Positions 1-47,109 of a stretch of DNA of 64,000 bases are shown piece by piece. The notes beneath the pieces were generated by a model, which searched no databases, was not told where the DNA came from, and was given only the letters and a program-made list of their open reading frames with translations. The stretch lies in assembly GCF_988242995.1 (NCBI RefSeq), contig NZ_OZ547043.1; one strand, given 5' to 3'. The translations under genes and the position numbers were made by a program. Position 1 is the first letter of the stretch. Each line of letters starts with the position of its first letter.

Positions 1-338
1 GTCAGGGACGTAAGCAGTCTTTTAGGCTGCCGCCAGTCGATACCTTCCAGCAGCATCGCCAGCTGCGCCTGCGTAAGGAACACTTTGCCATCCCGGGCTG
101 ACGGCCAGGCGAAGCGGCCGCGCTCCAGCAGTTTGGTCAGCAGATACAGTCCATCGCCGGTAGACCAGAGGAGCTTTACCTGACTGCCATTACGCCCACG
201 GAAGATAAAAACGTGACCTGACATCGGATCGTCTTTCAGCGTCGTCTGCACCTTTGCCGCCAGGCCGTTGAAGCCGTTTCTCATATCGGAGATGCCAGCG
301 ACCAGCCAGATCTTTGTCCCTGATGGTAATGGGATCAA
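1..338 (-). CDS. IS66-family TnpB (orf2) accessory protein, C-terminus cut by window edge
   Basis: Own translation of the reverse strand gives LIPLPSGTKIWLVAGISDMRNGFNGLAAKVQTTLKDDPMSGHVFIFRGRNGSQVKLLWSTGDGLYLLTKLLERGRFAWP..., recalled as the IS66 orf2 family; not in the ORF track because the frame runs off the window. Confidence 0.65.
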   Translation of the reverse strand, partial: MIPLPSGTKIWLVAGISDMRNGFNGLAAKVQTTLKDDPMSGHVFIFRGRNGSQVKLLWSTGDGLYLLTKLLERGRFAWPSARDGKVFLTQAQLAMLLEGIDWRQPKRLLTSL

Positions 339-754
339 CGTTTGAGCTCCCGTATCAGCAGGTTCAGGATATTTTCGCTGATGGCACCATTCAGACGGAG
401 TGATCCGTGCCGGAACGTCACTTCACAGCTGATATTGAGTGATTCAGGTGTCGCAGCAGCTACAGGTTGTGACCGGGGGGAGGTTGTAGGGACAACATCT
501 TCGGCATCAAGTGTTATCGGGAGCAGCTCAGGCACGTTGTTTTCTGTTGTTGAAGGAGGACGTAGTTTTCCTTCGCGCCAGTACTGGCGCCACTTGAACA
601 GCAAATTATCGTTGATCCCATGCTCACGAGCGAGTTGCGCTACGGAGATCTCTGGTCGATGCGAGAGTTCAACCATTTTGATTTTGAACTCCACGGGATA
701 ATTAGGGCTTTTTTTACGCACTGCGGTTAATGATTTTATGGATAGCGTCCACAT
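335..754 (-). CDS. IS66-family TnpA (orf1) helix-turn-helix protein
   Basis: 139-aa ORF immediately upstream of and overlapping the TnpB-like frame, typical IS66 orf1/orf2 arrangement. Confidence 0.55.
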   Translation of the reverse strand: MWTLSIKSLTAVRKKSPNYPVEFKIKMVELSHRPEISVAQLAREHGINDNLLFKWRQYWREGKLRPPSTTENNVPELLPITLDAEDVVPTTSPRSQPVAAATPESLNISCEVTFRHGSLRLNGAISENILNLLIRELKR

Positions 755-820
755 ATTTGGTGTCCACTATTCTCTCAGGAATTTCAGGATCTGCCAGACG
801 GTGCTGAGACGACGCTTACA

Positions 821-1603
821 TAATTTTTACGTTCAAGACAGTTGATTATCGGCGCATATGACTCAAAAAGAGCCTGATGATTGCCTCTTTTCCATAGGCT
901 CTTTCTCTGAAGTGAAGGAAGGCCCGGAAGAAAGCACTCGCTGGCATACGTGACTCCAGCTCAACCGGAGATAATCACCATTGTTATTTTTCTATTTAAT
1001 AATAATCTCCTGAAAAATAGATATAGCAAAAATACAATCCGGCCAGATTTAATTCCGCATTCATTACCAGAAACAATCAACACCACAACTATCATATCAT
1101 TCAATAGTAACTGCTAAAATTTTATTATTTCCCTCTTATTCACATAGAAATTGTCAACCTGTTTATTATGCCGCACTTAAATAGTTAATCACAAAACAAC
1201 ATCACCATTATTTGCGTGTTTTATTTATTAATAACATAGTCATACGTTCTTTTTTTACAAGGAAATAATCAATTGATAAATTGTTTTTGGTCTTAATAGT
1301 CAAGTAGGAAACATTTTAATAAATGATAAAAATCCTAAATTCCTTGTTCATAATGTAGGGGTGTGTTAAATAGGTGGGCAAAATTTGGTTCCCCTTCTCG
1401 CCTGTAATATTGCAGCATCTTCGCACCTCCATGAGACATTGCGACTTAATAAGAAGGTGATAAGTCCTGCATATAAGCATGGACTGACCATGGTTTTATA
1501 TTCATTAAAAATTTTGTTACAACCCATTGATTTAGCATAAATAAATTATAGTGGGTTCGGGTTTGTTGTGACTGTGGCATTATTTCCGTGCAAAGGAGCT
1601 GAT
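821..1603 (+). promoter_or_regulatory. AT-rich kps region 1 promoter / leader upstream of kpsF
   Basis: About 780 bp of roughly 30 percent GC non-coding DNA directly 5' of kpsF; candidate -10 CATAAT at 1349-1354. Region 1 promoters in group 2 capsule loci are known to lie about 0.2 kb upstream of kpsF and to be H-NS/SlyA/IHF controlled. Exact start site not determinable here. Confidence 0.4.
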
Positions 1604-2587
1604 ATGTCTGAAAGACATTTACCTGATGACCAGAGCAGTACTATCGATCCATATCTAATTACCTCTGTTCGCCAGACTCTGGCAGAACAAGGCGCAGCAT
1701 TACAAAACTTGTCTAAACAACTGGATTCCGGGCAGTACCAGCGTGTCCTTAATTTGATAATGAACTGTAAAGGTCACGTTATTCTTTCGGGAATGGGTAA
1801 ATCAGGGCATGTCGGTCGTAAAATGTCAGCGACGCTGGCCTCTACGGGTACGCCTAGTTTCTTTATTCATCCTGCAGAAGCTTTCCATGGCGATCTGGGC
1901 ATGATTACGCCTTACGATCTTCTGATCCTTATTTCTGCCAGCGGTGAAACGGATGAAATCCTCAAGCTAGTTCCTTCACTGAAAAATTTCGGCAACCGAA
2001 TTATCGCCATTACCAATAATGGAAATTCCACGCTGGCGAAAAATGCTGATGCCGTGCTGGAACTCCACATGGCGAATGAAACCTGCCCGAATAATCTTGC
2101 ACCAACAACGTCTACCACGCTGACGATGGCGATCGGCGATGCGCTGGCGATTGCCATGATCCACCAACGCAAATTTATGCCGAATGATTTTGCGCGCTAT
2201 CACCCGGGCGGTTCATTAGGTCGTCGCCTGCTGACCCGCGTTGCTGATGTCATGCTGCATGATGTTCCTGCTGTACAGCTGGATGCGTCATTTAAAACCG
2301 TGATTCAACGTATCACCAGCGGATGCCAGGGAATGGTGATGGTAGAAGACGCAGAAGGTGGGCTAGCGGGCATTATCACCGACGGTGACCTGCGTCGCTT
2401 TATGGAAAAAGAGGATTCTCTGACATCCGCCACGGCTGCGCAGATGATGACACGTGAACCGCTGACGCTACCGGAAGACACCATGATCATTGAAGCGGAA
2501 GAAAAAATGCAAAAGCACCGCGTCTCAACGTTATTGGTGACCAACAAGGCAAATAAAGTCACTGGCCTTGTGCGCATTTTCGACTAA
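1604..2587 (+). CDS. kpsF: KpsF, arabinose-5-phosphate isomerase (SIS + CBS domains)
   Basis: ORF-track protein with SIS motif and tandem CBS region; start moved to the ATG at 1604, which has an AAGGAG Shine-Dalgarno 6 bp upstream (track start 1568 is an upstream GTG). Confidence 0.9.
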   Translation: MSERHLPDDQSSTIDPYLITSVRQTLAEQGAALQNLSKQLDSGQYQRVLNLIMNCKGHVILSGMGKSGHVGRKMSATLASTGTPSFFIHPAEAFHGDLGMITPYDLLILISASGETDEILKLVPSLKNFGNRIIAITNNGNSTLAKNADAVLELHMANETCPNNLAPTTSTTLTMAIGDALAIAMIHQRKFMPNDFARYHPGGSLGRRLLTRVADVMLHDVPAVQLDASFKTVIQRITSGCQGMVMVEDAEGGLAGIITDGDLRRFMEKEDSLTSATAAQMMTREPLTLPEDTMIIEAEEKMQKHRVSTLLVTNKANKVTGLVRIFD

Positions 2588-45683: not shown

Positions 45684-47109
45684 TAATGCCGATCAGTTAA
45701 GGATCAGTTGACCGATCCAGTGGCTGTGTAAGAATCCGGAAACGCTCACTTGTTTCCGGATTTTTTTATGCACATTGGACAGGCTCTTGATCTGGTATCC
45801 CGTTACGATTCTCTGCGTAACCCACTGACTTCTCTGGGGGATTACCTCGACCCCGAACTCATCTCTCGTTGCCTTGCCGAATCAGGTACTGTAACGCTAC
45901 GCAAGCGCCGTCTTCCCCTCGAAATGATGGTCTGGTGTATTGTTGGCATGGCGCTTGAGCGTAAAGAACCTCTTCACCAGATTGTGAATCGCCTGGACAT
46001 CATGCTGCCGGGCAATCGCCCCTTCGTTGCCCCCAGTGCCGTTATTCAGGCCCGCCAGCGCCTGGGAAGTGAGGCTGTCCGCCGCGTGTTCACGAAAACA
46101 GCGCAGCTCTGGCATAACGCCACGCCGCATCCGCACTGGTGCGGCCTGACCCTGCTGGCCATCGATGGTGTGTTCTGGCGCACACCGGATACACCAGAGA
46201 ACGATGCAGCCTTCCCCCGCCAGACACATGCCGGGAACCCGGCGCTCTACCCGCAGGTCAAAATGGTCTGCCAGATGGAACTGACCAGCCATCTGCTGAC
46301 GGCTGCAGCCTTCGGCACGATGAAGAACAGCGAAAATGAGCTTGCTGAGCAACTTATAGAACAAACCGGCGATAACACTCTGACGTTAATGGATAAAGGT
46401 TATTACTCACTGGGACTGTTAAATGCCTGGAGCCTGGCGGGAGAACACCGCCACTGGATGATACCTCTCAGAAAGGGAGCGCAATATGAAGAGATCAGAA
46501 AACTGGGTAAAGGCGATCATCTGGTGAAGCTGAAAACCAGCCCGCAGGCACGAAAAAAGTGGCCGGGACTGGGAAATGAAGTGACTGCCCGCCTGCTGAC
46601 CGTGACGCGCAAAGGAAAAGTCTGCCATCTGCTGACGTCGATGACGGACGCCATGCGCTTCCCCGGAGGAGAAATGGGGGATCTGTACAGTCATCGCTGG
46701 GAAATCGAACTGGGATACAGGGAGATAAAACAGACGATGCAACGGAGCAGGCTGACGCTGAGAAGTAAAAAGCCGGAGCTTGTGGAGCAAGAGCTGTGGG
46801 GTGTCTTACTGGCTTATAATCTGGTGAGATATCAGATGATTAAAATGGCGGAACATCTGAAAGGTTACTGGCCGAATCAACTGAGTTTCTCAGAATCATG
46901 CGGAATGGTGATGAGAATGCTGATGACATTGCAGGGCGCTTCACCGGGACGTATACCGGAGCTGATGCGCGATCTTGCAAGTATGGGACAACTTGTGAAA
47001 TTACCGACAAGAAGGGAAAGGGCCTTCCCGAGAGTGGTAAAGGAGAGGCCCTGGAAATACCCCACAGCCCCGAAAAAGAGCCAGTCAGTTGCTTAACTGA
47101 CTGGCATTA
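45684..47109 (+). mobile_element. IS4, complete 1426-bp copy
   Basis: Terminal inverted repeats TAATGCCGATCAGTTAAG (45684-45701) and CTTAACTGACTGGCATTA (47092-47109); length exactly 1426 bp; flanked by 13-bp direct repeats. Confidence 0.85.
45768..47096 (+). CDS. insG: IS4 transposase (DDE family)
   Basis: 442 aa from [16 protein letters not shown]..., recalled as the IS4 transposase; the track ORF adds six residues upstream. Confidence 0.85.

Follow-up and report, generated by a model that had tools for sequence, protein, structure and literature searches.

An ISEc22-type insertion sequence at a probable deletion junction upstream of the capsule gene kpsF

The window analysed here is a 64,000-nucleotide stretch of contig NZ_OZ547043.1 (assembly GCF_988242995.1) that opens with part of an insertion sequence (IS) and continues into the kps capsule locus. 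The first-pass annotation placed the terminus of an IS66-type element at about 820, some 780 bp upstream of kpsF. It proposed that this element abuts the region 1 promoter (PR1), marks the mosaic left edge of the capsule module and might influence the context of the promoter. The question is therefore what the element is, how it came to lie beside the capsule genes and whether it matters for their regulation.

The left end of the window (1-819 of NZ_OZ547043.1) is identified by its sequence as the tnpA-proximal 819 bp of an ISEc22-type element of the IS66 family. It is followed by a short stub of another element, by the upstream DNA of the capsule locus and by kpsF:

1-338, minus strand: tnpB, with 112 of 115 codons in the window, a TTG start at 338-336 and a 3' end past the left edge
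335-754, minus strand: tnpA, 139 amino acids, a helix-turn-helix accessory protein, with a TGA stop at 337-335
755-819, minus strand: non-coding tnpA-proximal end of the IS, 65 nt, with a 22-nt terminal inverted repeat at 798-819
820-844, plus strand: right-end stub of an IS110-family element, 25 nt, ATAATTTTTACGTTCAAGACAGTTG, identical to the final 25 nt of homology in the P470 copy
845-1603, plus strand: kps-specific 5' region, conserved, with an AT-rich tract (23-30% GC) at about 976-1350
1604-2587, plus strand: kpsF, 327 amino acids, first gene of kps region 1, annotated in relatives as a KpsF/GutQ family sugar-phosphate isomerase

The tnpB reading frame (window 3-338, minus strand) matches the Pfam family TnpB_IS66 (PF05717) with an E-value of 6.2e-36 over profile positions 2-100 of 101, scoring 122.8 bits against a cut-off of 26.6. 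The frame upstream of it (338-754, minus strand) matches HTH_Tnp_1 (PF01527) with an E-value of 9.9e-12. A small helix-turn-helix tnpA upstream of tnpB, with the TGA stop of the former overlapping the TTG start of the latter, is the arrangement characteristic of the IS66 family. Elements of this family have imperfect terminal inverted repeats that open with 5'-GTAAGCG. On the plus strand, the terminus reads ...ACGCTTAC (...GACGACGCTTAC) and ends at 819, the last seven nucleotides being CGCTTAC at 813-819; read on the minus strand, the repeat at 798-819 is GTAAGCGTCGTCTCAGCACCGT. Comparison with the empty site in kps loci that lack the IS places the break at 818-820, with a two-base CA ambiguity, which coincides with the end of the repeat. 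The terminal repeat is a true IS end and the upstream reading frames are IS66-family genes, in agreement with the first-pass annotation, which also correctly had both genes on the minus strand, transcribed away from kpsF, and mobile DNA as the boundary of the promoter region. The distance from 819 to the kpsF ATG at 1604, the start assigned by PGAP in all relatives, is 784 bp.

A megablast search with window 1-1603 in 5426 complete E. coli genomes gave 25 full-length matches at 99.0-99.6% identity, all of them annotated as tnpA and tnpB beside kpsF. On sequence grounds, this match of the whole junction is far beyond chance. Four relatives that share the junction were inspected, namely PCN033, E200086, AST85 and O166:H15 JNE070796. 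In all four, the element is 2454 bp long from end to end (GTAAGCG...CGCTTAC), which matches the length of ISEc22. The far end in PCN033 is GTAAGCGTGCAGCAAGAACCGT and agrees with the near terminal repeat at 15 of 22 positions. Since the ends are 2454 bp apart in the relatives, the window holds only the tnpA-proximal third of such an element, that is, the tnpB/tnpA portion, with tnpC and the second terminus situated before base 1. The continuation seen in the relatives has the gene order tnpA-tnpB-tnpC and encodes a TnpC of 512 amino acids. In PCN033 this protein contains the DDE_Tnp_IS66 domain (PF03050, E-value 1e-106), together with zf-IS66, LZ_Tnp_IS66 and the IS66 C-terminal element (PF13005, PF13007 and PF13817). 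It is labelled by PGAP as "IS66-like element ISEc22 family transposase", and the name ISEc22 used here is taken from this annotation of the relatives. The visible 819 bp are 99.5-99.9% identical to the ISEc22 copies of the four relatives, have the same ends and form the same 100-bp junction with the kps upstream DNA. The one difference in gene length, a tnpA of 139 amino acids in the window and 128 in PCN033, is due to a 1-nt indel near 751; tnpA is annotated as 420 nt in AST85 and O166:H15. The copy in the window adjoins a kps locus of the type found in enteroaggregative E. coli (EAEC) 042, whereas those of the relatives do not.

The DNA on the two sides of the element in the relatives indicates that it did not simply insert. 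The 8-bp target duplication that IS66-family elements generate is exemplified nearby by an ISEc8-like copy in UID2309220009, which has GTTTAATC on both sides. No such duplication surrounds the ISEc22-type element in any of the four relatives with the same junction. Their flanks are unequal: next to kps the element is bordered by ATAATTTT, the only flank contained in the window itself, and at its far end by GCACATTT. The far flank in the relatives falls at about codon 46 of a DUF4942 gene that closes the adjacent pheV island, and the near flank falls within the right end of an IS110-family element, 25 nt from its boundary. In NC101 and 042, which lack the IS, both sequences are found in the same orientation about 970 bp apart. 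A simple insertion with an 8-bp duplication is ruled out for the four relatives by these unequal, widely separated flanks. The missing duplication is a consequence of a secondary deletion at this copy and is no argument against its membership of the IS66 family.

The DNA that is missing, about 0.97 kb, comprises the rest of the DUF4942 gene, the copy of the tRNA-Phe 3' end with its terminator (attR) and the greater part of the IS110 remnant. The attR was found in every IS-free locus inspected, and neither a tRNA nor an attR was found in the window or in the loci of the genomes sharing the junction (the junction clade). The surviving piece of the IS110-family element is the stub at 820-844. Upon alignment with the full-length copy in P470, the window diverges after ...CAGTTG, at 844, so that homology to the 3' end of the full-length element stops at its right boundary. 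In kps loci without the IS, the stub runs on into a longer remnant, which ends in a transposase pseudogene of 183 nt. The 60-residue reading frame of this remnant in IS-free loci had no Pfam match, and the IS110 label is that given by PGAP.

The kps-specific DNA starts at 845, past the stub. The IS is thus upstream of the promoter region, as had been noted, but does not abut it, because the 25 nt of the IS110 stub intervene. Nor is the IS a general edge of the capsule module. The basal layout, as in AH21F008, is speC-yqgA-pheV-IS110 remnant-kpsF, and the edge relative to the chromosomal backbone in IS-free strains is the pheV terminator. What the IS does mark here is the deletion of about 0.97 kb that included attR.

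These observations suggest that the ISEc22-type element sits at a deletion junction and is not a fresh simple insertion. One end would have come to lie in the ancient IS110 remnant found ahead of kps in almost every group 2 locus, and the 0.97 kb would have been lost either through an IS-mediated adjacent deletion or through recombination between two IS copies. Synthetic queries representing the possible precursors, an ISEc22 element with its duplication at either the IS110 or the DUF4942 site, gave no match covering at least 80% of the query in the 5426 genomes. If the far junction, to the left of the window, is as in the relatives, it would read GCACATTT joined to GTAAGCGTGCAGC (starting GTAAGCG) and would truncate the DUF4942 gene. 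The deletion junction is deduced from relatives that share the right-hand junction, and the genome of the window could differ there.

A 100-bp probe spanning the junction (window 771-870) was found at 100% identity in 27 of the 5426 complete genomes and in no others; the left junction was alike in four of these 27. EAEC 042 is without it. Of the genomes, 1698 have the upstream region 821-1603, with coverage of 80% or more in 1554, nearly always at 95-99% identity or higher. The IS junction thus occurs in about 1.6% of the roughly 1700 genomes with this kps upstream region. This distribution makes it a rare marker with a single origin, neither private to one strain nor general. The deletion would accordingly be an event that happened once, and the junction, now occurring with at least three region 2 types, has probably since been combined with these serotype-specific segments by homologous recombination. 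Its combination with a 042-type region 2, as in the window, occurs in none of the 5426 complete genomes. Because the junction traces to one ancestral deletion event it is useful as a tracer, and 771-870 can serve as a marker of this lineage of pheV-island/kps arrangements across serotypes. No paper tying kpsF to IS66 was found in the E. coli literature. The junction is nevertheless already annotated in public genomes and, the IS and this kind of location both being familiar, the case is ordinary.

The mosaic structure of the locus has its boundary elsewhere:

1142-1400, no strand: recombination crossover interval from SNP tables, with the junction-clade allele to its left and the EAEC 042 allele to its right

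To the left of this interval, the window shares with the junction clade a cluster of SNPs at 1074, 1109, 1131, 1138 and 1141. From 1142 to about 17,300 there are six differences from EAEC 042 (99.96% identity), which lacks the IS and is otherwise the closest match to the kps locus. The junction-clade genomes depart from the window at 1401, 1538 and 1694, and increasingly further on. The chromosomal flanks of the window are 2-3% divergent, in contrast to the near identity of the kps genes to those of 042. The simplest reading of these alignments is serotype replacement through homologous recombination, in which a 042-type kps block would have entered the locus of the window by crossovers at 1141-1401 on the left and, on the right, at 14,431-17,308, near the 5' end of kpsM. 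The switch in ancestry falls within the upstream region of PR1 and not at the IS end, where the mosaic edge had been supposed. A crossover at this position means that the promoter allele and the capsule type need not be inherited together. The possibility that the SNP cluster at 1074-1141 arose as a compensatory consequence of the IS was also considered and rejected, because the IS-free strains E-1246 and fS10a share the allele and the region 1 proteins.

The DNA between the IS and kpsF is well preserved, 821-1603 being 97-99% identical to the corresponding region of ST131, NC101, 042 and about 1550 further genomes. The transcription start PR1-1 has been mapped 225 bp before kpsF, with H-NS/SlyA sites from -224 to -79, H-NS also binding at +1 to +32, an IHF site at +140 and further promoters PR1-2 at +132 and PR1-3 at +181 (PMC8960920, PMC5738388). 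These published coordinates, which are those of other strains, were transferred to the window by distance from the kpsF ATG:

About 1155-1300: H-NS/SlyA sites, distance-transferred
1344-1349 and 1367-1372, plus strand: candidate PR1-1 hexamers TTGTTC and TAAATA with a 17-nt spacer, read by eye and absent from the output of the consensus scan
About 1379, plus strand: PR1-1 start, distance-transferred
About 1511, 1519 and 1560: PR1-2, the IHF site and PR1-3, distance-transferred

On this scale, some 560 bp separate the IS end from the PR1-1 start downstream, and the outermost of the mapped H-NS/SlyA sites, at about 1155, is still about 335 bp from the IS. No outward or hybrid promoter was found on the plus strand at the IS end (755-860) by the consensus scan and by eye, and no structured RNA in 1-1800 matched Rfam at an E-value of 1 or less. 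The CRP site described for the 042 kps locus was set aside, as it concerns kpsM and PR3 and not PR1. An effect of the IS on PR1 is unlikely because of the distance, the intact and conserved intervening DNA, the presence of an IS110 remnant at the same place in IS-free loci, the lack of an outward promoter and the transcription of the IS genes away from kpsF. The IS is most likely neutral for capsule regulation, judging from footprints published for other strains and from a simple consensus scan. The proposed influence on promoter context consequently finds no support in the distance of about 335 bp (on the map of PMC8960920) or in the promoter scan. Lying outside every mapped PR1 element, the IS would be of little consequence for capsule biology.

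The overall explanation is very probably that a single event produced a deletion junction carrying an IS that is neutral for PR1. It is quite unlikely that the IS alters capsule expression, whether by limiting the nucleation or spreading of H-NS, by the loss of a terminator with read-through from the island into kps, or by a change in supercoiling. Such an effect is conceivable because the IS stands in place of the usual upstream pheV terminator and IS110 remnant, the upstream island genes are on the plus strand, pointing towards kps, and PR1 responds to both H-NS and transcription-coupled supercoiling (PMC5738388, PMC8960920). The IS also causes the GC content to rise from below 30% to above 50% within about 150-350 bp of the AT-rich tract. 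However, a similarly GC-richer IS110 remnant occupies this place in IS-free loci, and read-through would have to traverse 2.45 kb of antisense IS, at whose end there is no promoter-like site on the plus strand. All mapped sites lie at least some 335 bp from the IS end, in the intact and conserved DNA of 845-1603. The persistence of the junction with at least three capsule types also fits a neutral passenger.

The identical junction in 27 genomes of varied origin likewise makes it very improbable that the element arrived upstream of kpsF recently, in one strain, by a simple insertion that made an 8-bp duplication and cost no DNA. Simple IS66-family insertions do happen nearby, as the ISEc8-like copy with its GTTTAATC duplication in the IS110 remnant of UID2309220009 demonstrates, and the other end of the present IS is outside the window. 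Nevertheless, attR is gone together with most of the IS110 remnant, no intermediate with a simple insertion is present among the 5426 genomes, and the flanks differ in all four relatives examined and are about 970 bp apart where the IS is absent. It is more improbable still, to an extreme degree, that the IS is an active agent of capsule mobility, moving kps or switching serotypes as the arm of a composite transposon or as a portable patch of homology. The association of the junction with at least three region 2 types, the 99.96% identity of kps to 042 beside chromosomal flanks diverging by 2-3%, and the abundance of ISEc22-like copies (a median of three matching places per genome) might be read in this way. 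The crossovers of the 042-type block, however, lie in conserved kps DNA and not at the IS end, and the pattern is that of ordinary homologous replacement by way of regions 1 and 3. No second ISEc22 element flanks the locus within the window, which apart from the element at its left end contains a single IS, an IS4 some 28 kb past region 3.

If a deletion junction is indeed the correct reading, its main consequence would be for the pheV island. The island PAI-V is excised by its integrase between 22-bp pheV direct repeats (PMC10272209). Since the kps-proximal repeat is gone in the junction lineage, the island should be locked to kps. Judging from the sequence arrangement, the removal of attR would fuse the two and should block precise, integrase-mediated excision. 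Should the loss of attR immobilise the island in this manner, it would be a small but clear case of an IS stabilising a pathogenicity island. A stronger form of this idea, which is unlikely, is that the loss of attR and of the tRNA terminator has welded the pheV island to kps as one non-excising block and possibly retuned the thermoregulation of PR1. Island, IS and region 1 may then travel and recombine as a unit, even into a divergent Escherichia backbone like that of the window, and the loss of the terminator or the GC-rich neighbour could subtly retune the H-NS-dependent thermoregulation of PR1.

The overall layout is the same as that of PAI-V/PAI-pheV beside kpsF, with its 22-bp pheV repeats (Arredondo-Alonso et al. 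2023, PMC10272209): a pheV island ending in cbtA/cbeA, DUF5983, DUF957 and DUF4942 is followed by kps and then by type II secretion genes. The junction clade differs in that the kps-proximal direct repeat has been deleted with the 0.97 kb. An IS beside a capsule locus without a target duplication, read as a post-insertion deletion, has likewise been described for IS1 in ST131 KL112 (bioRxiv 10.64898/2025.12.15.689991). In that case the IS family and the location are different, and the kps genes are rearranged and PR3 removed, whereas in the window the kps genes are all intact, as are the mapped PR1 sites.

The ISEc8-like insertions in UID2309220009 and LH10-b-1 share with the window the IS family, the orientation away from kpsF and the pheV-island/kps neighbourhood. 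They are nevertheless a different IS, with identity of about 83% across window 1-452 (tnpB and part of tnpA), and have another insertion point, in the IS110 remnant; that in UID2309220009 is a simple insertion that has kept attR. By this comparison of sequences, they are events independent of the ISEc22 junction. Two derivatives within the junction clade carry an additional IS, an IS21 at 949 in AST85 and an IS3 at 755 in E200086. With these further insertions and the ISEc8-like copies, the pheV-island/kps interval has the character of an IS graveyard; its richness in IS elements has already been remarked upon for the CFT073, K100 and K15 loci (PMC12488582).

The kps locus of the window is almost the same as that of EAEC strain 042. 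Between positions 1142 and 17300, a span that takes in all of kps regions 1, 2 and 3, there are only six differences from 042 (99.96% identity). Upstream of kps, 042 has the usual attR, the kps-proximal pheV direct repeat, and the IS110 remnant, without the IS found in the window. The ISEc22 junction, where the end of the IS66-family element at 819 meets kps-side DNA, occurs together with the window's region 2 in no complete E. coli genome, and a related region 2 is present in only 13 complete genomes. Its genes include the following:
9676-11265, WcbI-family/hexapeptide acetyltransferase
11497-14832, minus strand, 1112-aa protein
15073-15765, cytidylyltransferase-domain protein
The 1112-aa protein, flanked by the other two, had no match whatever in a Pfam search and probably serves as capsule polymerase for a K type as yet uncharacterised.

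The chromosomal backbone from 17300 to 64000, which carries the gsp type II secretion genes, sslE, the glc operon and yghO through pitB, differs from 042 by 2-3%. Its best match among 5426 complete E. coli genomes reaches only 97.6% over 24 kb, with 98.8% for the glc operon. The window may come from a rare or divergent lineage of Escherichia, one that took up kps and IS DNA resembling that of E. coli. The yghO region is broken by an insertion of about 1.4 kb, absent from 042:
45684-47109, insertion with the gene for an IS4-type transposase of 448 aa (Pfam domains Nterm_IS4 and DDE_Tnp_1)
The blast segments of the window and 042 overlap by about 13 bp at this site, as would fit a target duplication.

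The IS110-family remnant, consisting of a transposase C-terminus and the right end, separates pheV/attR from kps in each of the nine IS-free loci examined, and appears to be an ancient, fixed component of the left border of the kps locus. Related full copies are labelled "IS110 family RNA-guided transposase" by PGAP. Its positions in the window and in two public kps loci are:
window, 820-844
locus L005, 5791-6024
locus L009, 3221-3450
In UID2309220009, where an ISEc8-like element has inserted, the remnant is only partly left, and in locus L007 pieces of it are situated on either side of an ISEc8-like insertion.

Just to the right of the IS110 stub at 820-844, the conserved kps-specific DNA contains an imperfect hairpin at 866-908, with arms AAAGAGCC and GGCTCTTT and a loop of 22 nt. 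Read on the minus strand, the hairpin precedes a T-run and might act as a weak terminator; it was not among the reports of the terminator scan. Farther toward kpsF, the 68 bp at 1074-1141, which stop just before the inferred position of the distal H-NS/SlyA site, hold a cluster of five SNPs. This allele is common to the 27 junction genomes and the IS-free strains E-1246 and fS10a, and is missing from about 700 other kps loci. The cluster appears to be a small patch brought in from elsewhere or a separate allele upstream of the region 1 promoter, PR1.

Within the ISEc22-type element, a 1-nt indel at 751-754 relative to the junction relative PCN033 shifts the annotated tnpA start, the product being 139 aa long in the window and in AST85, another junction relative, and 128 aa in PCN033.
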